DNA of 64,000 bases from Myxococcales bacterium (GTDB lineage Bacteria; Myxococcota_A; UBA9042): assembly GCA_009692425.1 (NCBI GenBank), contig SHZF01000006.1:5704-69703 (forward strand), written 5' to 3'. Below, piece after piece: positions 1-64,000 of this stretch. The first letter of the stretch is position 1. The number at the start of each line of letters is the position of its first letter. The position numbers and the translations under genes are program-made. Under the pieces are notes generated by a model. That model searched no databases, was not told the DNA's origin, and saw nothing but the letters and a program-made list of their open reading frames with translations.

Positions 1-1036
1 GCGCCGTGCACGCAGGCTTGCCGTCGAGCCCGCACTTGATGACGGCCGCGTTCAGCGGCGCACCATCGGGACACTTCGGCAGCTCGACTGCGCAGGGGTT
101 GCATGCGCCGCCGACGGGCGTCTTGCCTTGCCACACGAACCCTTCGTCGGTGGTGCCGTCACAATCGTCGTCCAGCGCGTTGCACGCTTCGGCCACCGCG
201 CCGGCCGCGGGCGTCTTGCAGATCGTGGCGCCGGCGGCGTCGCACGAGACCAGGCCCGACTCCTTGCCGCAGATGCCGGCGACGACCGTGCACTGTGCTG
301 CCAGCGGCAGGCCTTGGAATTGCAGGCCGTCGTCGACGCTGCCGTTGCAGTCGTTGTCGATGCCGTCGCAGGACTTTTCCGGCGCCTCGAAGCCAGCCAA
401 CGTCGGTGCCTTGCAGGCGCAGCCGATGCAGCCGAACGCCGGAAACTTCGCGGCTGACGTCTTGTCGCAGACGACCTCGACCGCGTCGAGCTTGCCCTGG
501 CACACGCCGTGGTCGCATAGCGGCTTGAGGTCTTGCTTGGCGCCGTCGAAGGCATCGACGATGCAGTTTCCGTCGCTGTCGATGGCGTTGGACTGCACGG
601 CGTCGATCGTGCCATCGCCGTTCGTATCCTTCGGCTGTTTGGGGTCGCCGATTTCGACGCCGTCTGCAATGCCGTCGTCGTCGCTGTCGGCCAGCGCGAC
701 ATTGGTGCCGAGCGTCTTTTCGAGGCCGTTTGCGAGCCCGTCGCCGTCGAGGTCCGAGTCGAGCGGCTGGCAATGGTTTTCCGTGCAGATGCCGCCCGCG
801 CAATCGCCGTCGCCAGAGCACTGCGATGAGCAGCGGCCGAGGTGGCACTCGCCGGAGTCGCAATGGCTGCCTATTCCGCAACTTGCGCCGAACTTGCGCT
901 TCTTGCGGCCAAACAGATCGGCGCACCCGACAACGAGCGGCAGCGCCAGCGCAAGCACGAGCAAGCCGCAGATCCCGTGCGTCCCCGCGCGCACCGACCA
1001 GAGGGCCACTCCTAGAGCCGGGTGCGCGCGAACCAT
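1..1036 (-). CDS. Cys-rich secreted lipoprotein, 3' end cut by the window edge. Hand-translated minus frame begins MVRAHPALGVALWSVRAGTHGICGLLVLALALPLVVGCAD... It carries thrombospondin-type-3-like Ca-binding Asp repeats (DSDLDGDGLANG, DSDDDGIADGVEIGDP, DTNGDGTIDAV, DSDGNCIVD) and C-x-D-N/D-D-C-N/D-G units (CDGIDNDCNGSVDDG, CNALDDDCDGTTDEG).
   Basis: Minus-strand ATG at 1036..1034, then a signal peptide with lipobox (LVVGC). The ORF runs off the window edge, which is why it is absent from the ORF track. Acidic Ca-binding repeats and regularly spaced Cys are seen directly in translation. The repeat style resembles the Myxococcales cysteine-rich repeat. Confidence 0.6.
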   Translation of the reverse strand, partial: MVRAHPALGVALWSVRAGTHGICGLLVLALALPLVVGCADLFGRKKRKFGASCGIGSHCDSGECHLGRCSSQCSGDGDCAGGICTENHCQPLDSDLDGDGLANGLEKTLGTNVALADSDDDGIADGVEIGDPKQPKDTNGDGTIDAVQSNAIDSDGNCIVDAFDGAKQDLKPLCDHGVCQGKLDAVEVVCDKTSAAKFPAFGCIGCACKAPTLAGFEAPEKSCDGIDNDCNGSVDDGLQFQGLPLAAQCTVVAGICGKESGLVSCDAAGATICKTPAAGAVAEACNALDDDCDGTTDEGFVWQGKTPVGGACNPCAVELPKCPDGAPLNAAVIKCGLDGKPACTA

Positions 1037-1294
1037 TACGACCTCTGTGCGACTAGAGCGCGGCCCGCAATCTAGCAGAGCGGCGGGTTGGGCGGGAAGG
1101 CACCGGGTCGGCCTGACGTCGGCCTGACGCTGCGTTGAGGACAATGGCGAGCGCTGCCGTCGTCGTTTGGCGTCTCACCCCCTGGCAGTTTCGCGAGACG
1201 CCTCGGATCGGAAACCGGGGGTGGACGGGGAGGCTGTGCGCCTCTGACGCCAAAAACCGATGCTATGTTCAGATCATACGATCGAGGAGCCAAC

Positions 1295-1310
1295 TGGCAC
1301 GCACCTTGCT
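1295..1310 (+). promoter_or_regulatory. Candidate sigma-54 (RpoN) promoter, TGGCAC-gcacc-TTGCT, 49 nt upstream of the comM ATG
   Basis: Exact -24 TGGCAC at 1295-1300, 5-nt spacer, -12 TTGCT at 1306-1310. An unusually AT-rich patch (1262-1285, ctatgttcagatcatacgatcg) lies just upstream in a ~70% GC background. A GGGAG RBS sits 7 nt before the ATG at 1359. Confidence 0.5.
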
Positions 1311-1358
1311 CCCTAGGTCTGCGCCGGCCGCAACCAAGTGGCCTGCGTGGGAGCCCGC

Positions 1359-2903
1359 ATGCAGTCCAGGATCCTGAGCGCCGCGGTCGTCGGTGTCGAT
1401 GCGCGGCTGGTCGAAGTGGAATGCGACGTCTCCGGCGCCGTGATGGCTTTCGATACCGTCGGGCTACCCGAACTGTCGGTGCGCGAGGCGCGCTACCGGG
1501 TGCGCTCGGCGATGCGGGCTTCGGGCCTGAAGTTCCCCGGCCGCAGCGTCCTGATCAACCTGGCGCCCGCCGACCTGCGCAAGGACGGGACCTGCTACGA
1601 CCTGCCGCTGGCGCTCGCCCTGCTGGCGGCCGATGGGACCCTGCCGCCGGGCGTGCTGGACGGCTTCGTGGTCGTCGGCGAGCTGTCGCTGATGGGCGGC
1701 GTGCGGCCCGCGGTCGGCGTCCTCGCGATGGCCCAGTTGGTGCGCGACCTCGGCTTGCGCGGCATCCTCTGCCCTGCGGACAACGTCGCCGAGGCCCGCG
1801 CAGTCCACGGCATCGAGGTGCGTGCGGCCCAGATGCTGGCCGGCGTCGTCGACTGCCTGCGCAGCGGTGCCGCATGGCCGGAGCCCGCGTGTATGCCGCG
1901 ACCTGTGGCACCGCGCTCCCACGACCTGTGCTGGTCCGACATCCGCGGTCACGCTGTCGCCAAACGTGCGCTTGAGGTGGCGGCGGCGGGCGGGCACAAC
2001 GCCGTGATGGTCGGCACGCCGGGCACCGGCAAGACGATGCTGGCCCGTCGCCTGCCGTCGATCCTGCCGCCGCTCGACGCCAACGAGGCCGTCGAGGTGA
2101 CGAAGGTGCACTCCGTGGCTGGCTTGCTCCACTCCGGCGCGGGCCTCCTGACCGAGCGGCCCTTCCGCGCGCCGCACCACACCATCAGTGCGGCTGCGCT
2201 CGTGGGCGGTGGGTCGATCCCCAAGCCGGGCGAGGTGTCGCTGGCCCACCGCGGTGTGTTGTTCCTCGATGAGTTGGCTGAGTACCCGCGCTACGTGCTG
2301 GAGACCCTGCGGCAGCCGCTCGAAGACGGCACGGTCACGGTGACGCGCGCCCGCCAAGTCGCCCGGTTTCCGTCGCAGGTCATGCTCGTCGCCGCCCTGA
2401 ACCCGTGCCCGTGCGGCCGCCAAGGCTCAGCTACCCATGCGTGCACGTGCTCGCCGGTCGCGCTCAATCGGTACCGCGGCCGGCTGTCGGGTCCCTTGCT
2501 CGACCGCATCGACCTGCAGGTGCGGGTACCGGCGCTCGAAGCGGGCGCGCTGCGCGGGGGCCCCGATGGCGATACGTCCGACACGGTCCGAGGTCGGGTG
2601 TGTGCCGCACGGCGTGTGCAGTACGACCGGTTCGGGCCCGGCGTGACGAACGCCACCGTGCCTATGCCACGCCTGCGCAACATGAGCCCGCTCGCGACGC
2701 CCGTCCACGACGTCCTGCTGCGCGCACTCGAAATGTTCGGCCTGTCGCCGCGTGCCCACGACCGCATCTGGCGCGTGGCGCGCACGATCGCGGACCTCGG
2801 CGGGGTGCATGCCGTCGAGATTGGCCACATTGCCGAAGCCTTGCAATACCGCTGCTTCGACGAACCCTGCGCGCCCTTGGCGACCCGCGCCGCAGCCGCA
2901 TAG
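1359..2903 (+). CDS. comM: ComM/YifB-family Mg-chelatase-like AAA+ ATPase (competence protein ComM homolog)
   Basis: Translation [25 protein letters not shown]..., Walker A GTPGTGKT, and the C-terminal Zn-ribbon-like CPCGRQ....CTCS of YifB/ComM. Start chosen at 1359 (RBS) rather than 1338. Confidence 0.85.
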
Positions 2904-2989
2904 CCACCCCTCGATACCCTGACCGGCCGCCGGGCGTTCTGGCGGACCGGATTTTTCAAGGGCGACATCTCCGTCGCCCCGGAGGCACC

Positions 2990-4009
2990 ATGGCAGACAA
3001 GACCAACGTTCCGCTCCTCGACGACCTCGTTCGCTCCATCGAGAAGGCATTTGGCAAGGGCATCGTGATGGCAGCGGACGGGCCCGCCGTCGATCAGGAC
3101 ATCGAGCCGCTTCCCACCGGTTCGTTCGCGCTGGACCGGGCCCTCGGCATCGGCGGCCTCCCGAAGGGGCGCATCATCGAGATCTTCGGGCCCGAGTCGT
3201 CGGGCAAGACCACGATGGCGCTCTCGGCATTGGCCCAGGCGCAACGCCAGGGCCTCGTGGCGGCCTTCATCGACGCGGAGCACGCGCTCGACCTGAAGTA
3301 CGCCCGCGACCTCGGATGCGACTGCAGCCGGCTGCTGTTGAGCCAGCCCGACTGCGGCGAGCAGGCCATGGATGTCGTCGAGGCGCTCGTGCGCTCTGGC
3401 GAGGTCGGCCTGATCGTGATCGACTCCGTGGCGGCGCTCACCCCCAAGGCGGAAATCGACGGCGAGATGGGCGACAACCACGTCGGCCTGCACGCCCGCC
3501 TGATGTCGCGGGCGATGCGCAAGCTGGCGGCGCTGGCGCACCAGACGGGCACGACGCTCATCTTCATCAACCAGATCCGCATGAAGATCGGCGTCACGAT
3601 GGGGAGCCCGGAGACGACGACCGGCGGCAACGCGTTGAAGTTCTACGCGTCGGTGCGGCTCGACGTGCGGCGTATCGGCTCGCTCAAGCGTGACGAGGCG
3701 ATCTACGGCAACCGGCTCAAGATCAAGGTGCAGAAGAACAAGGTCGCGCCGCCGTTCCGGCAGTGCGAGATCGACCTGCTGTTCGGCCAGGGCTTCTGCC
3801 GCGAGGCCGAGGTGTTTGACCTCGGCGTGCAGCAGGGCGTCATCCAGCGCTCGGGTGCCTTCTACCGCTGCGGCGACGAGATGGTCGGTCAGGGCCGCGA
3901 CCGCGCCGTGGCCGAACTGAAGGCGCGTGCCGAACTGTGCCGGCGCATCGAAGCCAAGCTCGCGGATGCCCCGGCCGACCTCGCCAGCGACCTCGACGAG
4001 GCCGCGTAG
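2990..4009 (+). CDS. recA: Recombinase RecA
   Basis: [27 protein letters not shown]...GPESSGKTT...[22 protein letters not shown]...[11 protein letters not shown]: a full RecA signature. GGAGG RBS at 2981-2985. Confidence 0.95.
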
Positions 4010-4057
4010 CCATCACCTGTCGGAGGCAGCCGGCACGGTGCCGGCGGTCTCGTTGCA

Positions 4058-4075
4058 GATGCACGCGCGTGCATC
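4058..4075. promoter_or_regulatory. 18-bp perfect palindrome GATGCACGCGCGTGCATC between recA and ssb (candidate operator site, or weak hairpin)
   Basis: Self-complementary sequence seen directly, 16 nt upstream of the ssb ATG. A second imperfect palindrome CCGGCACGGTGCCGG lies at 4030-4044. Confidence 0.3.
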
Positions 4076-4090
4076 CATTCGGAGGAAGTC

Positions 4091-4447
4091 ATGGATTTGA
4101 ACAAGGTACTGCTCATCGGCCGCCTCGGCGGCAAGCCCGAGATCAAGAAGTCCGCCGCTGGCGACCCCGTCGCCCGCATGCGGGTTGCCACCAGTTTCCA
4201 GCGCGAGAAGGACGGCGTGTGGGAGAAGGAGACGGAGTGGCACACGGTGGTCGCGTTCGGGCGCACCGCGGAGAAGTGCGGTGAGTTCCTCGACAAGGGG
4301 CGGCTCGTCTACGTCGAGGGCGCGCTGCGCTCGAACGAGTGGACGGACAAGGAAGGCAAGGCCCGCGTCGACCGCGAGGTACGGGCGCGCGACGTGTACT
4401 TCCTCGACAAGGCACCCGCGGCCCCCACCCAAGCGCTCGCCGTGTAG
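4091..4447 (+). CDS. ssb: Single-stranded DNA-binding protein with OB fold, lacking the acidic C-terminal tail (118 aa)
   Basis: MDLNKVLLIGRLGGKPEIKK....WHTVVAFGRTAE...LVYVEGALRSNEWTDKEGK is the SSB OB fold. It ends ...APAAPTQALAV with no D-D-D-I-P-F tail. GGAGGA RBS at 4081-4086. Confidence 0.9.
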   Translation: MDLNKVLLIGRLGGKPEIKKSAAGDPVARMRVATSFQREKDGVWEKETEWHTVVAFGRTAEKCGEFLDKGRLVYVEGALRSNEWTDKEGKARVDREVRARDVYFLDKAPAAPTQALAV

Positions 4448-4486
4448 GCAGCCTCGGTCGCGGCGGATCGTCGCACAGCCCGCAAG

Positions 4487-4521
4487 GGGGCGGGTCCGGG
4501 CACCAGGCTCGGGCCCGCCCC
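4487..4521. terminator. GC-rich hairpin (12-bp stem GGGGCGGGTCCG / CGGGCCCGCCCC, one mismatch) between the convergent ssb and radical-SAM genes; candidate bidirectional terminator
   Basis: Inverted repeat seen in sequence, between the ssb stop at 4447 and the minus-strand stop at 4551. No T-tract. Confidence 0.4.
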
Positions 4522-4550
4522 GCTCGCCGGATCAGGCCAACCGCGCTGGA

Positions 4551-5915
4551 TCAGGCTGCCGCAGTCGGCGTGGCCGGTGCCCTGGCGCTGGTTTCGAGCG
4601 CGGACCCAAACGCCGCACCGGGCAGCGGGCCCGCCTTGCCCATCTTCGTCCGCGCCGGGTTGAAGTAGCCGAACCGCAAATTCGGATGGCGGCGGCGCAA
4701 TTCATGGACCATCGCGAGCATTCCGATCGGCGCGGCGACCGCGTCGGGGCCGAGCACGCGCAGGTAGAGTTCCGGGTCGATGTTCAGGTTGCGGAGCTGC
4801 ACGAGATGGACCCCACCGCGATCGATGAACTGCGAGAGTGCGTCCACTTCCACTGGCGAGTCGGATACGCCCGGGAACATGAAGGCGTTCAGGCTCACGT
4901 ACTTGCCGCGGCTCGACATCTCCACCGCCGACTGCAGGACGTGGTCGAAGGTGTAGCCGCGCGGCTTGTAGTAGGCCGTGTACAACGCGGCCCGCCCGGA
5001 GTTCAGGCTGATGCGGATGCTGTCGAGTCCGGCGTCGGCCAGTCGCGCCACGACCTTGGGCAACGACGCGTTCGAATTCAGGTTGACCACGCCGTTCGCA
5101 GTGCGCCGTCGGATGCCGCGCACGGTCGCTTCGAGCACCTTCGGCTGCATGAGCGGTTCGCCCTCACAGCCCTGGCCAAAGCTGACGACACCGTTCGGCA
5201 CGCGTTCCAAGTGCTGCACAGCCAGTTCGATCAGGTCGTCGGAGCCCGCCGGCGTCGCGATGCGGTCGTGGTTGGCGGCGAAGCTGGAGCCGGTCTGATC
5301 CGAGATGCAGCCGACGCACGCCGCGTTGCAGGTCGATGCAGCCGGCATCGGCGCTTCCCAGCGGCCCAGGAAGAAGTTCTGCGCGGCCCGGCAGTGGTAG
5401 ACGAGCGCGCAGTGCTCGATGTGCGCGAGCGCCCGGTTCGCCGGCGACGCCTTGCGGATGCGCCGCACTCCGCGCTGCACCGCCGCGATGTCGAAGCGGT
5501 ACGGGTCCTGGCGCGGGTCCGCATCGACGCGCACGGCCGGCACGACGAAGCGGCCGTTCATCCAACCGATGGCCGTGTACGCGTACAGCGGAAGGTCCGG
5601 GGCGCCCGGCGCGGTCTCGAAGGCGGGGTGGAGCAACCGCAGATACGCCGGCGCAACGAAAGCCGCTGCCGCCTGCAGCGGACCCGTGTGTGCATCACCC
5701 TCGACTTCGACCAGTTCGTCGATGCCCGCGTCCACTGCCAGCGGACGGCGGCCCGGCAGCACGAAAACGTCGCTCCCCTTCGGCAACGCGATCATCTCGA
5801 CGGCCAGCGGCCGCCGCAGGCTGTCGCCGTCCCAGCAGACCAATGCAAGGTCGGGGTGGTCGAAGATGCGCCCGGCGGAATCGGCGACCACGGCACGCGG
5901 GAAAAGGTCAGGCAT
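4551..5915 (-). CDS. Radical SAM domain protein (CX3CX2C = CNAACVGC) with an ~190-aa N-terminal domain of unknown function
   Basis: Canonical radical-SAM Cys triad, followed by GQGCEGEPLM (a SAM-binding glycine-rich motif). Confidence 0.75.
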   Translation of the reverse strand: MPDLFPRAVVADSAGRIFDHPDLALVCWDGDSLRRPLAVEMIALPKGSDVFVLPGRRPLAVDAGIDELVEVEGDAHTGPLQAAAAFVAPAYLRLLHPAFETAPGAPDLPLYAYTAIGWMNGRFVVPAVRVDADPRQDPYRFDIAAVQRGVRRIRKASPANRALAHIEHCALVYHCRAAQNFFLGRWEAPMPAASTCNAACVGCISDQTGSSFAANHDRIATPAGSDDLIELAVQHLERVPNGVVSFGQGCEGEPLMQPKVLEATVRGIRRRTANGVVNLNSNASLPKVVARLADAGLDSIRISLNSGRAALYTAYYKPRGYTFDHVLQSAVEMSSRGKYVSLNAFMFPGVSDSPVEVDALSQFIDRGGVHLVQLRNLNIDPELYLRVLGPDAVAAPIGMLAMVHELRRRHPNLRFGYFNPARTKMGKAGPLPGAAFGSALETSARAPATPTAAA

Positions 5916-35140: not shown

Positions 35141-35385
35141 GCTTCATCCCGTGGCGGTGCCCTGGCTGCCGCACTGCCGCACCCTGCATTTTCCCGTACG
35201 GCCCTGCCGGGTCAAGGAAAACCGCGTGGGTCGGCAGATCGCGTCCACTTTGGTCGGCGGTCCGCCTCGCCCCCAACCTGGGTGAGACCGTGACTGAGAC
35301 GGGGACCGAGACCGAGACCGCCCCAGTCGCCTGGAATCTCTCGTGACCTGTGAATCGGAAATAAGGATTCGCATTCGCGGCTCGT

Positions 35386-35401
35386 TGGCACGCTCGTTGC
35401 A
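35386..35401 (+). promoter_or_regulatory. Candidate sigma-54 promoter, TGGCAC-gctcg-TTGCA (perfect consensus), 45 nt upstream of the radC ATG
   Basis: -24 TGGCAC at 35386-35391 and -12 TTGCA at 35397-35401. An AT-rich patch (35351-35375, gaatcggaaataaggattcgcattcg) lies immediately upstream. A GAGGAA RBS precedes the ATG at 35446. Confidence 0.55.
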
Positions 35402-35445
35402 TCCCTGCATGGCACGCCGGCTGGACGCGGCGGCGAGGAACTGTC

Positions 35446-36084
35446 ATGGCGCAGTTGTGCACATACTTGGCGCCGCGGAGCGCCGCGGGTTCCGGATCCG
35501 TCCAAACACTCTCCGATGTCGACCTTGTCGCGGTCTTGATCGGGCCGACGCCAGACGACCGGTGGCGGGCCTGCGCCCTGGTGGCCCGCCAGGCGAGCCT
35601 CGCCGCGCTCGGGGTGACCCTCCGCGCGCCGGGCCACGATCTCGATGGCGCGTCGCACAGGCGGTTGCTTGCCGCTGTCGAGTTGGGGTGCCGCGCGCTG
35701 GCCGACAAGTGCGATGCGGCGCAATTGCGGCGGGTCCAGGACCTCGTGGCGCGCTACCGGGACCTCGCCCTGTCCGACGCCGAACAACTCGTCGTCGTAT
35801 GCCTCGATGCAGGCCGACATCTGGTGGCTGAGTATCGATTTCACGGCGGACTCGACAGCGTCACGGCGCCGCTGCCCCTGCTGCTGCGCCGCGTGCTGGA
35901 GTCGGGCGCTCCCGGCTTTGCGCTGGTCCACAACCATCCGAGCGGCGACCCGCGGCCGAGCGCGGCCGACCGTGCGTTTACGGAGCGGGTCGCCGCGGCG
36001 GCGCGCCTGTGCGATCTGCGCCTTTTCGAGCACGTCGTGGTGGCTGCCCGTGGCTGGGCGCGGGTACCCGGCGGTACGTCGTGA
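35446..36084 (+). CDS. radC: RadC-family JAB/MPN domain protein
   Basis: N-terminal LSDVDLVAVLIG, plus the JAMM motif HNHPSGDPRPSAAD. Confidence 0.85.
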   Translation: MAQLCTYLAPRSAAGSGSVQTLSDVDLVAVLIGPTPDDRWRACALVARQASLAALGVTLRAPGHDLDGASHRRLLAAVELGCRALADKCDAAQLRRVQDLVARYRDLALSDAEQLVVVCLDAGRHLVAEYRFHGGLDSVTAPLPLLLRRVLESGAPGFALVHNHPSGDPRPSAADRAFTERVAAAARLCDLRLFEHVVVAARGWARVPGGTS

Positions 36085-36632
36085 GCGCTTGTGCGACCGC
36101 GGCGTCGGCGCGAACGAGGCACGGGCCTTCGACCGTGCTGGGACCGGTCGTCGGCTGGGCCTTGTTGCTGGCCGTCGCCGGGCTGCGTGCCGTGGTGCCT
36201 GCGCCCGATTTTGCAGGGGCCACGGCAGAGCCGCGCGCGAACGAGACCCGCCTTGCCGCCCGAGGTTGCCTCGACCCCGTCACTGCGACCGCCCCGCAAT
36301 GGCAGGCGCTGCCCGGCGTGCGCCGCAAGCTGGCCGAAGCCCTCGCGACGCGCTGCCGCGGCACGCTCGACTGCCGAGCAGGCGCTTTGCCGGACGGTGT
36401 GGGCGGCCTGGGCCCCGTGCTGCGCGCGCGGGTTGGTCCTTGGCTATGCCAGCGCGGTCCCGCCGGGCACCTTCTCGAGTTCGAAGGCGTCGTGAAGCAC
36501 GCGCACGGCCAGTTCCGTGTACCGATCATCGATCACGACGGAAATCTTGATCTCGCTGGTCGAGATCAAAAGGATGTTGATCCCTGCGTCGCCGAGAGCC
36601 TGGAACATGCGCAACGCCACGCCGGGCTGTGA
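36081..36632 (+). CDS. ComEA-like helix-hairpin-helix protein. The 3' extent is uncertain: the ORF as read overlaps the convergent lysC by 189 nt.
   Basis: The GTG start overlaps the radC TGA (GTGA). An N-terminal hydrophobic segment ([13 protein letters not shown]) is followed by [20 protein letters not shown], which resembles the ComEA HhH motif (LNTA..EEL..LPGIG...A..I). The first in-frame stop is at 36632. Confidence 0.35.
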
Positions 36633-37706
36633 CCGCATGCCGGCGCCGACGACCGAAACCTTGGCGACGCCCTTGTTACAGTCCAGCGTCGTGAAGCCGA
36701 TCGCGTCGTGCTGCGCGTTCATCAGTTCAACCGCGCGGTCGGCGACGTTGCCCGCCACCGTGAAGCAGACATCGGTGCGGCCGTGGATCGCCGGGTTCTG
36801 GATGATCACGTCGACGTTGATGTGATCGTTCGCGAGCGCGCGAAACAGTGCGGCGGCCTTGCCCGGCTGGTCCGGTACGCCGTGCACCGTGAGCCACGCC
36901 GTGTTGCGGTCGTGGGCGATGCCGATGACGACCGCCCCTTCCATCCCGCTCTGCATCGCTGCCTCCTGTGGATCGGCGTCCGGCACGACCCAACTGCCCG
37001 GGCCGTCCACGAATGTGGACAGGCAATGGATGCGGACCCTGTATTTCAAGGCGAATTCAACTGATCGCGCCTGCAGCACCTTGGCGCCGAGACTGGCGAG
37101 TTCGAGCATCTCCTCGCACGAGATCACGTCGATGCGGCGTGCCTTGGCGTACACATTGGGGTCGGTCGTGTAGATGCCGTCGACGTCGCTGTAGATTTCG
37201 CAGGCATCGGCCTGCACCGCCGCCGCCAACGCAACCGCCGACAAGTCGCTGCCGCCGCGGCCGAGCGTGGTGATGTTGCCTGCCGCATCGACGCCCTGGA
37301 AGCCGGCCACGACCACGATCGCCCCGTCCGCCAGCGCTTCTTGCACCGGCTCGGCGTCGATCGTCTGGATGCGAGCCTGGCCATGGGAGCTGTCGGTTTC
37401 GATCCGCACCTGGTGGCCCAGAAAGCTGCGCGCGTCGGCCCCTTGCTCCTGCAGCGCCAAGGCCAGCAGCGCGATCGATACCTGCTCTCCGGTCGCAAGC
37501 AGCACGTCGATTTCGCGATCGTGTGGCTTCTTCGTCAGCTGGCTGGCGAGTTGGAGCAGGCGGTCGGTTTCACCGGCCATCGCCGACACCACGACGACGA
37601 CGCGGTGGCCGGCGCGGTGCGTTGCCAGCGCGCGGCGGGCGACGAGTTGGATGCGTTCGGCGCTGGCCATGGAGCTGCCGCCGAATTTCTGGACGATCAA
37701 GGACAT
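36444..37706 (-). CDS. lysC: Aspartate kinase
   Basis: [14 protein letters not shown]...[15 protein letters not shown]...two C-terminal ACT domains. Confidence 0.9.
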
Positions 37707-54552: not shown

Positions 54553-56019
54553 CTACCCGCCCGGCCGCGGCGGTCTGCCGACCGGCGCAGGCACATCGAT
54601 GGCGTACTGCTTGATCTTGTACTGCAGGTTGCGCGGCGAAATGGCCAGCAGGTCGGCCGCGTGCGTGCGGTTGCCGGCCGTCTGCTGGAGCGCCGCGAGG
54701 ATCAGCGCGCGCTCCGTCGCCTCGACTGCGTCGGGGATCGACAGCGTGTCGCGCGCGGGCAATGCGACGGCCTCGTGCCCACCCGGGCTGCGATCCAGGC
54801 GCACGAGTTCCGCCGTCAGGACGCCCCCATCGGCCAGCACGCAGGCCTGCTCGATCACGTTGCACAGTTCGCGCACGTTGCCCGGCCAGTGGTGGGCGAT
54901 CAGCTTGGCGCGGGCCGCGGGCTGCACCGCGCGAATCTGCGTGCCGAGTCGTTGGTTCGTCTTCTCGACGAAGTGTTCGATCATCATGTCGATGTCGTCG
55001 CGCCGCTCGCGCAACGGCGGCACGGCGAGTTCGATCACGCTCAGCCGGTAGTACAGGTCTTCGCGGAACCCACCGTCGCGCACCCGGAGGCGCGGGTTCA
55101 CCGCCGCCGCCGCCAGCACGCGCACATCGACTGCGATCGGCCGGTTCGAACCAACGCGGCGCACCTCGGATTCCTGCAGCACGCGCAGCAGCTTCACCTG
55201 GAGCGAGAGGGGCAGGTCGATGATCTCGTCGAGGAAAAGCGTGCCCCCGTGGGCCTCCTCGAACAAGCCACGGCGATCCTGGTGGGCATCGGTAAAGGCG
55301 CCGCGCACGTGGCCGAACAGCTCCGATTCCAGCAAGTTCGGCTGGATGGCGCCGCAGTTCACCGCGACGAACGGCTGGCGCGCCCGCGGGCTGGCGAGAT
55401 GCAGCGCGCGGGCGACGAGTTCCTTGCCACTGCCCGACTCGCCCGTGATCAGCACCGTCGAGGCAAACCGCGCGATGCGTTCCACCTGGCGGAACAGCGC
55501 GAGGATGGGCGCCGTCTGGCCGACCATGCCGTAGAAGCTACGCCCCTGCGGAATCACGTCCTCTTCTCTCACGGTCGCTGCGTCGTCCGCCGCCACATCG
55601 ACGACCAATGGCGGCGGCGCGAGCGCGTGCTGGCGAGCCTTCTCCACCGCGAGCCGCACCTTGAGTTCGGCTTCGGCGAGGCGGAACGGTTTCGACAGGT
55701 AGTCGACGGCGCCCAGCCGAATCGCTTCGAGCGCCGTTTCGAGGCTGCCATACGCGCTCATCACGACGGTCGGTGGCAGGCGCTCCTGACGGGCCAGCAC
55801 TTCGATGACTTCGAGGCCGGTCATGCGCGGCATCTGGAGGTCCATCAACAGCAAGTCCGGCATGCGTTGGCGCAAGGCGAGCAGGGCCTGGGCGCCGTCA
55901 TGGGCGCACTGGGTCTCGATGCCTGCCCGCTCGAGGTGGTCGGCCACCAACGCAGCGAACGGCACCTCGTCATCCACGATCAGCACGAAAAGTGGCTGCT
56001 TGCCGACGGGAATCGCCAT
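54553..56019 (-). CDS. Sigma-54-dependent response regulator (NtrC family): receiver domain, AAA+ sigma-54 activator domain and Fis-type HTH
   Basis: Receiver LIVDDE...DLLLMDLQMP. EBP core VLITGESGSGKELVARALH, the GAFTGA motif variant GAFTDA, ESELFGH. C-terminal HTH AGNRTHAADLLAISPRNLQYKIKQY. Confidence 0.9.
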   Translation of the reverse strand: MAIPVGKQPLFVLIVDDEVPFAALVADHLERAGIETQCAHDGAQALLALRQRMPDLLLMDLQMPRMTGLEVIEVLARQERLPPTVVMSAYGSLETALEAIRLGAVDYLSKPFRLAEAELKVRLAVEKARQHALAPPPLVVDVAADDAATVREEDVIPQGRSFYGMVGQTAPILALFRQVERIARFASTVLITGESGSGKELVARALHLASPRARQPFVAVNCGAIQPNLLESELFGHVRGAFTDAHQDRRGLFEEAHGGTLFLDEIIDLPLSLQVKLLRVLQESEVRRVGSNRPIAVDVRVLAAAAVNPRLRVRDGGFREDLYYRLSVIELAVPPLRERRDDIDMMIEHFVEKTNQRLGTQIRAVQPAARAKLIAHHWPGNVRELCNVIEQACVLADGGVLTAELVRLDRSPGGHEAVALPARDTLSIPDAVEATERALILAALQQTAGNRTHAADLLAISPRNLQYKIKQYAIDVPAPVGRPPRPGG

Positions 56020-56096
56020 CCTTGGTTGCGCCTCACGAGACTGCGCTTTGTGTTCACCGCGCCGCAGGCGTGGCACTCAATTGGCACGCCAATGTA

Positions 56097-60921: not shown

Positions 60922-61902
60922 TCAGCGCCGGAACGCTCCACCGGGCAAGCGCTGGATGCGCCCCGCCAAGCATGCCGCCAGCAGCGTCGCCGCCGTGGCG
61001 CTGCGGTCCAGCCCGGTGGCTGCCGCCAAGGCCTCGACCGACGCCCCCGCCGCGCCGGCTTCGGCCAGCGCCATCTCGAGGCGCGCGCGCTCCAGAGCCG
61101 ACCAGCCGGCGACGTCTGGCAGGGCTTGCGGCGGGACCGCAGGGGGCGCGTAGCATGGCGGGGCGGTTGGCGGCTCGTCAATCGGCAATCGCGGCGGGCG
61201 CCCGACAGCAGGGCCTTCGCGCGGTGGCTCCGGATCGCGTCGCAGCCAGTCAGCGCAACGTCCGGCCGCCAGTCCTGCGACGAGTTGGCGCGCATCATCC
61301 GGTGTTGCAAGTGCCCGGGCTCCGGATGCCAGCAACCTGTTCGTGCCCGCGCTGTTCTCCGTGCCCGGGGTCCACGGGGTCGCCAGAACGGGTCGCTGCA
61401 AGCGCCAGGCGTGGCGGCAGGCATGCAGCGAGCCGCTGCGGACCTCGGCGCACACGGCGACCACCGCATCGACCAGGCGCGCGACCAGCAGGTTGCGGAT
61501 CAGGAAGCGTGCCGGTGGCGCCGCGGCGCCCGGCGGCTGGCACGACAGTACAGCGCCGAGCCGGGCGATGGCCTCGAACAACTGGGCATTCTCGCGCGGA
61601 AACGGCACGTCGATGCCACCCGGCAACACCGCACACGGCGAGCCACCCGCCTCGAGCGCCCCTTGCAAGGCGGCCGTATCGACGCCGACCGCGCCGCCGC
61701 TCCACACGTCTGCCCCTGCCGTGGTGAGCCATGTGCCGATCGCGCGCGCCAGATCGTTCTGATCGCGTGTCGCCGCCCGTGCCCCGATCACGGCGACCCG
61801 CACCCGCCCGGCGGCGGGCAGCGAACCTGCCACCCACAGCGTGGCGTGGCCGGACGGTCGGCCGCACGCGTCTCCCGCCACGGCCTCGATCGACATCGCC
61901 AT
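60922..61902 (-). CDS. dprA: DNA processing protein DprA/Smf
   Basis: Rossmann-like VAVIGARAATRDQNDLARAIGTWLTTAGADVWSGGAVGVDTAALQGALEAGG...AVLP.GID; conserved dprA-topA adjacency. Start at MAMSIEAV. Confidence 0.78.
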   Translation of the reverse strand: MAMSIEAVAGDACGRPSGHATLWVAGSLPAAGRVRVAVIGARAATRDQNDLARAIGTWLTTAGADVWSGGAVGVDTAALQGALEAGGSPCAVLPGGIDVPFPRENAQLFEAIARLGAVLSCQPPGAAAPPARFLIRNLLVARLVDAVVAVCAEVRSGSLHACRHAWRLQRPVLATPWTPGTENSAGTNRLLASGARALATPDDARQLVAGLAAGRCADWLRRDPEPPREGPAVGRPPRLPIDEPPTAPPCYAPPAVPPQALPDVAGWSALERARLEMALAEAGAAGASVEALAAATGLDRSATAATLLAACLAGRIQRLPGGAFRR

Positions 61903-62061
61903 GAATCCTCCCTGCTTGGTGGCCTGCCGCCCGCCATGGTGGGCCGAGCGCGCGAAAAGCCCGCCCACAAACAGGTTCGCTCCGGGCGGCCACGTGACGC
62001 GGGTACACTCCGCCAGGGTGGGGTCAGTCCGCCCCAAGGTCCGATTCGCCTGGCGGCGGCT

Positions 62062-63423
62062 TCAGTGGCTGCGCTGCAGGCGGGCAGCGTAGAAAGCGTC
62101 CATGCCCGCCAGCAAGGGGTGTGTGCGGAGATCGCCCGCGGCGTCGAGCAGGGGGCGCACCCACGTCGCGCCGCCCGGGTCGCGGACGAAACCGGGGTGG
62201 GCTGCCAGGAAGCGTCCGACGACGAGTGGCCCCTCTTCTTCGGCAAACGAGCACACGGCGTACACGAGGTGGCCCCCGGGACGCACCAGGTCGGAGGCCG
62301 CCGCGAGCATCCGTGCTTGCAGGGCGTGGTGGCGCGGCAGGTCCGCAGCGCGACGCCGGTGGCGGATTTCGGGGCGGCGCCGCAGCGTGCCCAGCCCAGA
62401 GCACGGCGCGTCGACCAGCACCGCGTCCCAAGCCTCCCGGTCGAGGCCGAGATCGGTCGAGGCGTCCCCGGCGATCGTCGCGTCGAGCGGGTGGCCGGCC
62501 TGGCGGGCCAGCGCGGCGGCATCGGCCAGCTTGGGTCCATCGAGGTCGATCGCCGTCACGCGGGCCCCGGCTGCCGCGAGCGCCAGGGCCTTCACGCCCG
62601 CTCCGGCCGCCACATCGGCGGTGCGAGCACCGGGTGCCGGAGCCAGCCACCGCACGACGGCAGCGCTCGCGGCATCCTGCGCCAGCACCGCCCGGCGCGC
62701 GAACGCCGACGTCGCGAACACCCCGCCGCCATCGGCGCAGCGCACGCCGGGTACCGCCACTCCGTCGAGTTCCGCCACGGCGACGCCTGCCGCGGCCAGT
62801 TCCGCCCACACGAGCTCCGCGTCGCCTGCAGGGACATGCAGGTGCAGTGGCGCCGGCTGATCAAATGCGGCGTGGAGCGCATCGGCATCGAGTCCACAGA
62901 TGGCAGCCAACCGGCGCGAGCGCAGCGCGATCCAGTCGGGGAGCGAAGTTGGGGACCCTGCTTGCGGCAACGTGGCACCGGGCTCCGGCCGCCGCCGCGC
63001 GAGGCCGCGCAGCACCCCATGCACGAAGCCGACCGCGCGCCCCGCGACGAGACCCTTGGCGGCCTCGACCGTCGCATCGACCGCGGCGAAGGCCGGCACG
63101 CGCGGCAGGTACGCGAGTTGGCACGCGCCGACGCGCAACGCGATCAGCACCTCCGTGTCGAGGCCACAGAGCCCGTGGGCGCAAGCGTGTGCGAGCCAGC
63201 GGTCGAGCACGCGCTGGTGCCGCAGGGTCGCGTAGACGAGTTCCGTCACCAGCCCGCGGTCTGGCCCGGCCAACTCCGGCGGAGTGCCCAGCGCCTCGCG
63301 GACGGCGATCTGGCTGCCTGCCGTGCCGTCTTCGACCGCAAGCAGAGCGACGATGGCGCGGCGCCGCACGGACACGCCAGGCGGCAGGCTGTGTTCAGGC
63401 GTCGGGTTGGGCGACAGCGGCAT
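62062..63423 (-). CDS. rsmB: 16S rRNA (cytosine-C5)-methyltransferase RsmB/Sun family (NusB-like N-terminal domain plus NOL1/NOP2/Sun methyltransferase)
   Basis: SAM motifs VLVDAPCSGLGTLRRRPE, AVCSFAEEEG, and the catalytic PC/C pair. Start at MPLSPNPT. The upstream extension is rejected. Confidence 0.82.
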   Translation of the reverse strand: MPLSPNPTPEHSLPPGVSVRRRAIVALLAVEDGTAGSQIAVREALGTPPELAGPDRGLVTELVYATLRHQRVLDRWLAHACAHGLCGLDTEVLIALRVGACQLAYLPRVPAFAAVDATVEAAKGLVAGRAVGFVHGVLRGLARRRPEPGATLPQAGSPTSLPDWIALRSRRLAAICGLDADALHAAFDQPAPLHLHVPAGDAELVWAELAAAGVAVAELDGVAVPGVRCADGGGVFATSAFARRAVLAQDAASAAVVRWLAPAPGARTADVAAGAGVKALALAAAGARVTAIDLDGPKLADAAALARQAGHPLDATIAGDASTDLGLDREAWDAVLVDAPCSGLGTLRRRPEIRHRRRAADLPRHHALQARMLAAASDLVRPGGHLVYAVCSFAEEEGPLVVGRFLAAHPGFVRDPGGATWVRPLLDAAGDLRTHPLLAGMDAFYAARLQRSH

Positions 63424-63505
63424 GCGTGGTAGGTTCAGCGTCCTGCCAGCGGGTCCGGCGCGGTCGGCACTTTCCGCTCCCAGCGCGCCGCCCGTCAAGT
63501 TGCCC

Positions 63506-64000
63506 ATGACCCTGCCCGCCCGCCGATCGTGGAGAACCCTGCTGCCGCTCATCGGCACGGTCGTGCTCGTCGGCTGGTTTGTCCATTCGATGGACCGCGC
63601 GGGCTTCGTCCATGCCCTGCAGCTCTGCGACGTGCCGATGCTGGTCGGTGGTCTGGCCGTCGCGGGGCTCATCGCGTGGCTCTATGACAGCTGGACGCTG
63701 ACCTGGCTCGTGCATGCGACGCTGGGGCACCGCGGCCGCCCCGAGCCGGTCGGCTTGCGCGAACTTGCGCCGGTCAAGGCCGCCTCCTACGTGCTCAACA
63801 TCGCGAACTACCACGCCGCGACGTTGGGCATTGCCTGGGTGATCGCGCGCCGCAAGCAGGTGCCGTTCCTCGAAGGGGCCGGCGCGGTGGCTGCGCTGTC
63901 GTGGATCGACCTGGTGGCGGTGACGACCATGGCGACGATCGGCCTGCAGATCGCCCCGGATGTCGTCGGCGGGGCGCCCGCACTGCAGGGGTGGTTGCAA
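63506..64000 (+). CDS. Integral membrane protein, 5' partial at the window end (UPF0104 / lysylphosphatidylglycerol-synthase-TM-region-like flippase family?)
   Basis: MTLPARRSWRTLLPLIGTVVLVGWFV... with successive TM helices. The ORF runs off the window, so it is absent from the ORF track. Confidence 0.4.
   Translation, partial: MTLPARRSWRTLLPLIGTVVLVGWFVHSMDRAGFVHALQLCDVPMLVGGLAVAGLIAWLYDSWTLTWLVHATLGHRGRPEPVGLRELAPVKAASYVLNIANYHAATLGIAWVIARRKQVPFLEGAGAVAALSWIDLVAVTTMATIGLQIAPDVVGGAPALQGWLQ

Follow-up and report, generated by a model that had tools for sequence, protein, structure and literature searches.

We analysed a 64-kb stretch of contig SHZF01000006.1 from a Myxococcales bacterium (hereafter, the window), in which comM, recA and a short ssb gene lie in a row behind an element that, judged from its sequence and conservation, is very probably a functional sigma-54 promoter. 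A core of the same type stands in front of radC and a small ComEA-like gene. An initial annotation, made from the letters of the window alone, had proposed a functional sigma-54 promoter under a dedicated enhancer-binding protein (EBP). The conserved core, the enhancer-like TGAGAC repeats and the AT-rich trough described below all speak in favour of that proposal. The coordinates of the features are collected in Table 1.

A near-consensus sigma-54 core upstream of comM

The initial annotation placed a near-consensus sigma-54 site 49 nt before the comM ATG, and its coordinates, distance and gene names all proved correct. On the plus strand, positions 1295–1310 read TGGCACGCACCTTGCT, that is TGGCAC-N5-TTGCT, with TGGCAC at 1295–1300 and TTGCT at 1306–1310 (context, ...caacTGGCACgcaccTTGCTccctagg...), and the ATG at 1359 lies 49 nt past T1310. 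The slightly longer cTGGCACGcaccTTGCT (1294–1310) agrees with the pattern YTGGCACGrNNNTTGCW, its GG and GC exactly 10 nt apart and the weak 'r' position being the sole difference. The comM start is backed by N-terminal alignment with relatives (MLAKV.SAAVVG), and the promoter sits in the 322-nt divergent intergenic region at 1037–1358. The predicted 5′ untranslated region (UTR) is ~38 nt long, with a Shine–Dalgarno sequence, GGGAG, at 1349–1353.

A background-frequency check, proposed in the initial annotation and run here on both strands of the 64 kb, set the site well apart from chance. The exact motif TGGCAC-N5-TTGC occurs twice, against 0.16 expected from dinucleotide shuffles (2 of 100 shuffles gave two). 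Both copies are intergenic, in the right orientation and followed by a start codon 46–49 nt downstream. With one mismatch allowed, the window contains 10 matches against 5.8 expected, and therefore only the exact matches stand out.

A promoter scan of 900–4400 found no sigma-70-like site on the plus strand, and an Rfam scan of 900–4700 matched no RNA family; a leader riboswitch is therefore not the explanation. The LexA box of Myxococcus xanthus is CTRHAMRYBYGTTCAGS. Inspecting 1037–1358 and 2904–2989 by eye, we met no LexA box of this M. xanthus consensus, which may not be this lineage's. A candidate around GTTCAG at 1267–1272 was rejected by eye, as the remainder of the box is absent and it is not conserved in relatives.

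The core is invariant among diverged relatives

A protein search with the window ComM identified a clade of 'Myxococcales bacterium' ComM proteins at 58–71% identity. We fetched the genomic context for nine of them and obtained DNA for eight. Scanning a genome collection with ComM gave no close relative (identity at most 55%) and yielded four distant Myxococcota loci, while a metagenome scan with generic patterns from the clade alignment gave none closer than 54% among the matches listed. The window's contig is also present in ENA and Logan assemblies.

All eight relatives share the gene order of a Kelch-like lipoprotein gene on the minus strand followed by comM, recA and short ssb on the plus strand, and a convergent radical-SAM gene comes next in all but L164. 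Conservation upstream of comM orthologues, a check named beforehand in the initial annotation, bore the site out: the element is invariant in the window and the eight diverged relatives. In this motif-anchored comparison, TTGGCACG-N4-nTGC(W) is found in 9 of 9 clade loci, the window included, with 28–49 nt from the −12 GC to the comM ATG. An apparent absence of the motif in L166 was discarded, as it stems from a misannotated comM start: the true ATG (MLAKVHSAALVG) is at 3585, 84 nt downstream of the one annotated, and the promoter at 3525. When the nine upstream regions were aligned with MAFFT (46% mean identity), no columns other than TGGCAC, TGC and the ATG were invariant. The relaxed core TGGCA[CT]-N6-TGC has just three more occurrences elsewhere in the eight clade loci (~68 kb, both strands).

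The invariance of TGGCAC and TGC amid diverged flanks is the signature to be expected of a sigma-54 −24/−12 element and not of a sigma-70 hexamer on the opposite strand. The latter explanation would make the sigma-54 resemblance fortuitous, with TGGCAC serving as the −35 hexamer (GTGCCA) of a minus-strand sigma-70 promoter for the divergent lipoprotein gene, paired with TATGAT in the AT-rich patch. Such a site is indeed the sole promoter-scan hit in 900–4400 (1300 to 1273, minus strand, GTGCCA-16-TATGAT, 9 of 12 matches), and several relatives have an ATCA core in their AT-rich patch as well. It leaves unexplained, however, why all nine loci keep an invariant TGC at exactly 6 nt from TGGCAC, why the same bipartite element stands before radC, whose neighbour differs, and why the distance to the comM ATG is fixed. 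The TATGAT hexamer is not conserved, and a transcription start there implies a leader of ~230 nt. We consider this alternative very improbable, and rejected GTGCCA-16-TATGAT as the cause of the conservation on the strength of the TGC invariance, the radC twin and the unconserved TATGAT.

To look beyond the clade, we scored GG-N10-GC elements (at least 8 of 10 positions, up to 200 nt upstream) at 80 distant ComM loci from a species-level genome collection. Eight carry the element upstream of comM, four in Myxococcota and four in other phyla; all four distant Myxococcota loci have it directly upstream. It reads TGG(C/T)ACaaaaaTTGCT in two low-GC Myxococcota metagenome-assembled genomes (MAGs) and CGGCACgcggNTCGCA in a Polyangiaceae MAG and a Labilithrix MAG, and in the latter two loci recA also directly follows comM.

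The distant Myxococcota loci differ in their upstream repeats, with GTTCGTCA/TGACGAAC in the low-GC MAGs (L040/L042, 3700–3990) and two copies of TGGCCnGGCCA in Polyangiaceae and Labilithrix (L044/L046, 3800–3990). At L044/L046 the −12 GC is just 13–14 nt from the comM ATG, and the mRNA would be leaderless or nearly so. Sigma-54-like elements also precede comM in L023, L035 and L056 (Vicinamibacteria/Acidobacteria), as TGGCCCgttccTTGC at −28 and CGGCACccgtcTCGC at ~−143; these may be chance occurrences in 72% GC DNA.

Table 1. Features of the window discussed in the text
Feature	Position	Strand	Description
Cys-rich Kelch/MopE-type lipoprotein gene	ATG ~1036	−	Divergent neighbour of comM
Candidate enhancer (upstream activating sequence), perfect 8-bp inverted repeat GGCGTCTC-N18-GAGACGCC	1169–1202		Half-sites CGTCTCA (1171) and CGAGACG (1194)
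AT-rich trough between enhancer and core promoter	1250–1290		Composition
Sigma-54 core promoter TGGCACgcaccTTGCT	1295–1310	+	GG 1296–1297, −24 element; GC 1308–1309, −12 element
Predicted transcription start	1320–1322	+	~11–12 nt past −12 GC, from standard sigma-54 geometry and sequence
comM/yifB, Mg-chelatase-like AAA+ helicase, 514 aa	1359–2903	+	Pfam ChlI, Mg_chelatase and Mg_chelatase_C; TIGR00368, 515 bits
GC-rich hairpin (2923–2950) followed by AUUUUU	2923–2956	+	Spacer minimum free energy −39 kcal/mol, z = −2.5
recA, 339 aa	2990–4009	+	TIGR02012, 471 bits against a cutoff of 325; RecA and RecA_C; Shine–Dalgarno GGAGG 2981–2985
Short ssb, 118 aa	4091–4447	+	OB fold only; TIGR00621, 114 bits, profile positions 3–110 of 165
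Strong hairpin of 17 bp that separates ssb from the convergent radical-SAM gene	4485–4523		Probable operon end
Twin-promoter enhancer, six tandem hexamers TGAGAC CGTGAC TGAGAC GGGGAC CGAGAC CGAGAC	35283–35318		Direct repeat
Second sigma-54 core promoter TGGCACgctcgTTGCA	35386–35401	+	Other exact match in the window; 46 nt before radC ATG
radC (RadC-like JAB domain protein, 212 aa)	35446–36084	+	Pfam PF04002, 2.9e-22
Small ComEA-like gene	36081–36467	+	N-terminal transmembrane helix, then two helix-hairpin-helix motifs
NtrC-type EBP gene	54553–56076	−	REC, Sigma54_activat and HTH_8 domain matches
dprA	60922–62037	−	PF02481, 3e-39; in the usual rsmB-dprA-topA string

A twin promoter precedes radC and a ComEA-like gene

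The second exact core lies behind an array of six hexamers that forms the sole cluster of at least four GAGAC/GTCTC in the 64 kb and is followed by an AT-rich stretch. Two radC relatives (77% and 45% identical), in L175 and L177, keep the same arrangement of promoter and enhancer. L175 has the six-hexamer array and the core TGGCATgttcaTTGCA upstream of radC, and L177 a palindromic enhancer, GGTCTCA-N9-CGAGACCGGTCTCG, and the core TGGCACggcgcTTGCT. From the sequence, this twin promoter appears to drive radC together with a translationally coupled, membrane-anchored ComEA-like gene, whose GTG start overlaps the radC stop codon (GTGA).

The protein encoded by the coupled gene carries the motifs AARGCLD..ATA..W..(L/V)PGV.RK.A..L and V.G(V/L)GP..RA(R/K). 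It has no direct match in Pfam or NCBIfam, and a sequence profile search of the PDB returned nothing. Its L177 orthologue matches the generic Pfam HHH family above threshold (29 bits), and a profile search of 1.8 billion representatives gave 64 relatives, 41 of which carry a ComEA-type HHH_3 and five an SLBB domain. The top two PDB fold matches of a low-confidence model (predicted local distance difference test score 57) are ComEA structures, 2DUY and 8DSS, at non-significant E ~1. As the matches are limited to remote profiles and a weak fold, we name the protein ComEA-like and not ComEA.

In the window, the ComEA-like open reading frame (ORF) has no stop codon at the point where related ORFs finish (114 aa); the called frame spans 36081–36632 (165 aa) and overlaps the 3′ end of a convergent aspartokinase gene (36444–37706, minus strand) by ~190 nt. 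The missing stop could reflect a lost stop codon or an assembly error. A second TGGCACGC is found at 35410–35417, 24 nt past the radC −24 element; it has no GC at −12, and its place would be within the 5′ UTR.

TGAGAC half-sites and an AT-rich trough accompany both promoters

Upstream of the comM core, the candidate enhancer at 1169–1202 is centred ~135 nt from the predicted transcription start. Pairs of YGAGACS within 40 bp occur only at 1171/1194 and 35283–35313 in the 64 kb, in both cases upstream of an exact sigma-54 site. In an unbiased test of 807 hexamers, GTCTCA/TGAGAC was present in 12 of 12 zones between −170 and −40, against 1.2% of 1043 background chunks (binomial p ~9e-24, a value that overstates independence because the sequences are orthologous, though the surrounding DNA has diverged). 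When the variant TGGGAC/GTCCCA is included as TGRGAC, the nine comM zones from −260 to −40 contain 30 sites, or 15 per kb, and the background elsewhere is 0.46 per kb, an enrichment of ~30-fold. In each of the 12 promoters a TGAGAC/GTCTCA half-site precedes the −24 element by 40–170 nt. As it always stands clear of the core promoter, on the upstream side, its position fits an activator site rather than an operator. To our knowledge, the half-site matches no known activator site. Nla28, for example, recognises CT(C/G)CG(C/G)AG (bioRxiv 10.1101/2021.11.28.470282), unlike TGAGAC.

Between enhancer and core, the initial annotation had pointed to an AT-rich patch as a possible IHF or enhancer site. 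The patch is real, with 59–60% GC in 100-nt windows over 1201–1350 against ~70% around it, but the E. coli IHF consensus WATCAANNNNTTR has no match in the window at up to two mismatches, and the trough is conserved by composition only. Its lowest 20-nt stretch near the promoter has 35% GC and lies 43 nt upstream of the −24 element; a 20-nt minimum of 20–50% GC is found 20–67 nt upstream of that element in 12 of 12 promoters. The DNA of the trough may be bent intrinsically, or a protein of the IHF/HU type may bind there.

Farther upstream, a tandem direct repeat of GTCGGCCTGAC (two copies, 1107–1128, ~190 nt upstream of the promoter) gives rise to an overlapping TGACGTC palindrome, and CTGAC recurs at 1244–1248. 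These may be extra weak activator sites or may belong to the divergent gene.

Reach of the promoter across comM, recA and ssb

The window RecA is a bona fide recombinase by its full-length match to TIGR02012 above the equivalog cutoff, C-terminal domain included, and it is close to the E. coli and Mycobacterium RecA structures (E ~1e-115). The ssb product has an SsbB-like architecture, without the disordered linker and the acidic C-terminal tip. In all relatives the corresponding SSB proteins are 115–124 aa long and lack the canonical acidic tip, with only L171 ending tip-like in ...DADLPM.

On whether the promoter serves all three genes, as the initial annotation assumed, the sequence points both ways: order and strand are conserved, but a terminator-like hairpin with U5 follows comM. 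We infer co-transcription of comM, recA and ssb because their order and strand are conserved and their spacers are short, unconserved and without recognisable promoters, and on these sequence features it is probable, though well short of certain, that recA and ssb are driven by the sigma-54 promoter. The core TGGCA[CT]-N6-TGC never occurs in the comM–recA or recA–ssb spacers of the eight clade loci.

A promoter that is real but serves comM only, with recA and ssb expressed from their own promoter or promoters and the hairpin acting as a true terminator, would account for the GC hairpin and AUUUUU and for the similar T-runs in L165 and L173. It would also agree with M. xanthus, where both recA genes are reported to have their own promoters and to lie outside operons, and are described as monocistronic with sigma-70-type −35/−10 promoters (PMC7029660). 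Yet the hairpin is absent from most relatives, and in the window the ~33 nt from the U-tract to the recA ATG leave no room for a promoter downstream of it. The spacers (36–133 nt as called) contain no sigma-54 core, the plus strand of 900–4400 no detectable sigma-70-like site, and the order comM-recA-ssb is kept on one strand in all clade loci, with comM-recA retained in Polyangiaceae and Labilithrix. We therefore regard a comM-only promoter as unlikely, and favour transcription through all three genes. The hairpin at 2923–2956, which resembles an intrinsic terminator, may then be a partial attenuator between comM and recA.

The operon recA evolves quickly in parts of the clade. RecA identity to the window copy is 57–60% in L169 and L171 and 45–46% in L166 and L167, while ComM stays at 61–65% (65% in L166 and L167). 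In L166 (5203–6075) and L167 (5164–6117) recA is degenerate, scoring 224–227 bits against the cutoff of 325 and lacking the C-terminal domain. A fast-evolving, degenerate recA of this kind suggests that the comM-linked gene is an accessory paralogue in at least part of the clade, with a canonical recA presumably elsewhere in those genomes.

In the window, the recA–ssb spacer holds two perfect palindromes, GCCGGCACGGTGCCGGC (4029–4045) and GATGCACGCGCGTGCATC (4058–4075), neither followed by a T-run, with a single GGTCTCG half-site (4046) between them. The palindromes are not conserved in relatives.

A single activator would account for both promoters

The two promoters share the core, the enhancer half-site and an AT-rich spacer, and on this sequence evidence would control comM, probably recA and the short ssb, radC and the ComEA-like gene. 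The most economical model is a single NtrC-family activator that binds the TGAGAC repeats and opens sigma-54 closed complexes at both. Sigma-54 RNA polymerase would bind GG (−24) and GC (−12) as a closed complex unable to start unaided, and a putative NtrC-family EBP would bind the TGAGAC/GTCTCA half-sites at 1169–1202, the AT-rich stretch at 1250–1290 helping the DNA to loop back. ATP hydrolysis by the activator would then open the promoter for transcription that begins near 1321, reads comM, recA and the short ssb and ends at the hairpin (~4485–4523), and the same activator would act at the twin promoter at 35386 for radC and the coupled ComEA-like gene. The sequences show the motif, its conservation, the repeat shared upstream, the second promoter and the identities of the genes; we infer from them that sigma-54 is needed in vivo, that an activator binds, that recA and ssb are transcribed together with comM, and what the system is for.

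The initial annotation had listed an EBP at 54553–56019. The gene exists, but it lies on the minus strand and extends to 56076, and the plus-strand frame has no domain match. Its presence indicates that sigma-54 is in use in this genome, but as an activator of the two promoters it ranks only as a candidate: nothing links it to the comM or radC promoter, there is no TGAGAC pair near it, and none of the loci fetched has an EBP gene next to comM or radC. Opposite the 5′ end of the EBP gene, TGGCACTCAATTGGCAC (56071–56087, plus strand) contains two TGGCAC 11 nt apart, with no plus-strand gene behind.

Several points weigh against this model, besides the hairpin after comM, which could stop transcription ahead of recA, and the shared ancestry behind the hexamer statistics. 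Every sequence used comes from a metagenome assembly. The comM enhancer of the window has two half-sites only, and an estimated ~1.5 chance pairs per 64 kb makes it weak alone. The sigma-54 contact loop of the only EBP in the window is GAFTDA, not the canonical GAFTGA, and rpoN is not in the 64 kb. Finally, no sigma-54 or TGAGAC element lies upstream of dprA, and any competence-like regulon here is therefore partial.

Comparison with known sigma-54 promoters and competence regulons

In its mechanism the promoter is an ordinary sigma-54 promoter; its gene set is unusual, and what is new is the defined enhancer motif and the second regulon member. Like the classical promoters glnAp2/NtrC, nifH/NifA and pspA/PspF and the Nla-type EBP targets of M. 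xanthus, it has a GG-N10-GC core matching TGGCACG-N4-TTGCW, repeated or inverted putative half-sites ~60–150 nt upstream, a bendable AT-rich segment, a short 5′ UTR and NtrC-family activators encoded in the genome. It departs from classical IHF-assisted promoters in its lack of the E. coli IHF consensus, although an IHF site is a frequent rather than an obligatory feature of sigma-54 promoters, and from classical targets, which are nitrogen, flagellar, envelope-stress and developmental genes, in serving genes for recombination and DNA uptake. A paper on the sigma-54 regulome of D. vulgaris mentions none of comM, recA and radC, and in a partial coverage of the literature we found no report of sigma-54/RpoN control of comM, recA or radC.

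For nucleic-acid repair under sigma-54, the nearest precedent is rtcBA, which is tied to DNA-damage signalling in Salmonella (PMC9879122). There too a sigma-54 promoter and a dedicated activator, RtcR, govern nucleic-acid repair, but the products are an RNA ligase and cyclase, in contrast to the DNA recombination proteins here, and the RtcR gene adjoins its target whereas no activator gene is adjacent here. Within the phylum, M. xanthus recA1, which has no LexA box, is a precedent for LexA-independent recA expression (PMC7029660; PMC12288472), unlike the recA described here in not lying between comM and ssb behind a sigma-54 promoter.

By analogy, the two promoters would define a small regulon of DNA-uptake and single-stranded-DNA recombination genes that resembles the cytoplasmic part of natural-competence regulons. 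We compared it with those of gamma-proteobacteria (Sxy/CRP-S), streptococci (ComX/sigma-X), Bacillus (ComK) and Legionella (RocR/RocC). The set of comM, radC, ssb, recA and a comEA-type gene overlaps strongly with theirs (PMC1635313; PMC12378983), and its SSB is short, like SsbB. In gamma-proteobacteria the CRP-S regulon includes ComM, RadC, SSB and DprA (PMC1635313), and during transformation ComM acts as a branch-migration helicase (Nero et al. 2018, cited in PMC12378983). The control differs, with sigma-54 and an ATP-dependent activator in place of CRP-S/Sxy, an alternative sigma-70-family factor, ComK or a small RNA. So does the content: dprA stands outside the set, and the 64 kb revealed no comEC, comF or pilus gene behind such a promoter.

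Whether such a regulon is competence-like rather than purely a repair response is close to evenly balanced, and we lean slightly towards doubt. The ComEA-like envelope protein and the tail-less SSB argue for a competence-type programme. A LexA-independent response to DNA damage or replication stress, in which the activator senses damage or starvation and steps up recombination capacity while no DNA is taken up, is possible but the less favoured of the two. Roles at stalled forks have been proposed for each of ComM, RadC, SSB and RecA, and UV induces comM in E. coli (PMC1635313). In M. xanthus, LexA-independent damage responses exist and several sigma-54 activators shift in abundance after mitomycin C (PMC12288472). 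Two features of the window point the same way: its dprA stands outside the shared promoter type, and neither a pilus gene nor comEC was seen behind such a promoter in the 64 kb. A pure damage response would, however, leave the gene coupled to radC without an obvious repair role, as its product is a ComEA-like, membrane-anchored helix-hairpin-helix protein and putative envelope DNA receptor, and short tail-less SSB proteins are typical of the transformation-specific SsbB. Tentatively, then, a lineage of uncultured Myxococcota, and possibly Polyangia more widely, may run a competence-type programme (ComEA-like DNA receptor, RadC, ComM, a dedicated, fast-evolving RecA paralogue and an SsbB-like SSB) through sigma-54 and a dedicated TGAGAC-recognising EBP.

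Implications

Textbooks describe recA and ssb as sigma-70 genes that LexA controls. A promoter of the sigma-54 kind is silent without its activator, a logic usual for nitrogen, flagellar, stress and developmental genes; the recombinase, helicase and SSB encoded here would therefore be strictly off until a specific signal arrives. With the shared promoter and enhancer before radC and the ComEA-like gene, what began as one motif becomes a regulon that can be tested. Its defined TGAGAC site can be used to find the activator and further targets in whole genomes, and would help to learn whether these poorly known myxobacteria take up foreign DNA and recombine it, and at what times. Should the competence reading hold, master regulation of competence would gain a new class, and this recA operon would be the first for which dependence on sigma-54 has been shown. 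As the comM–recA pair and a sigma-54-like element are also found in Polyangiaceae and Labilithrix, which have cultured representatives, experiments are feasible.

Gene string around dprA

On the minus strand, rsmB (62062–63672), dprA (60922–62037) and topA (57741–~60900) follow one another. The mechanically called 1242-aa topA ORF starts inside dprA in another frame, and the real topA start lies further downstream.

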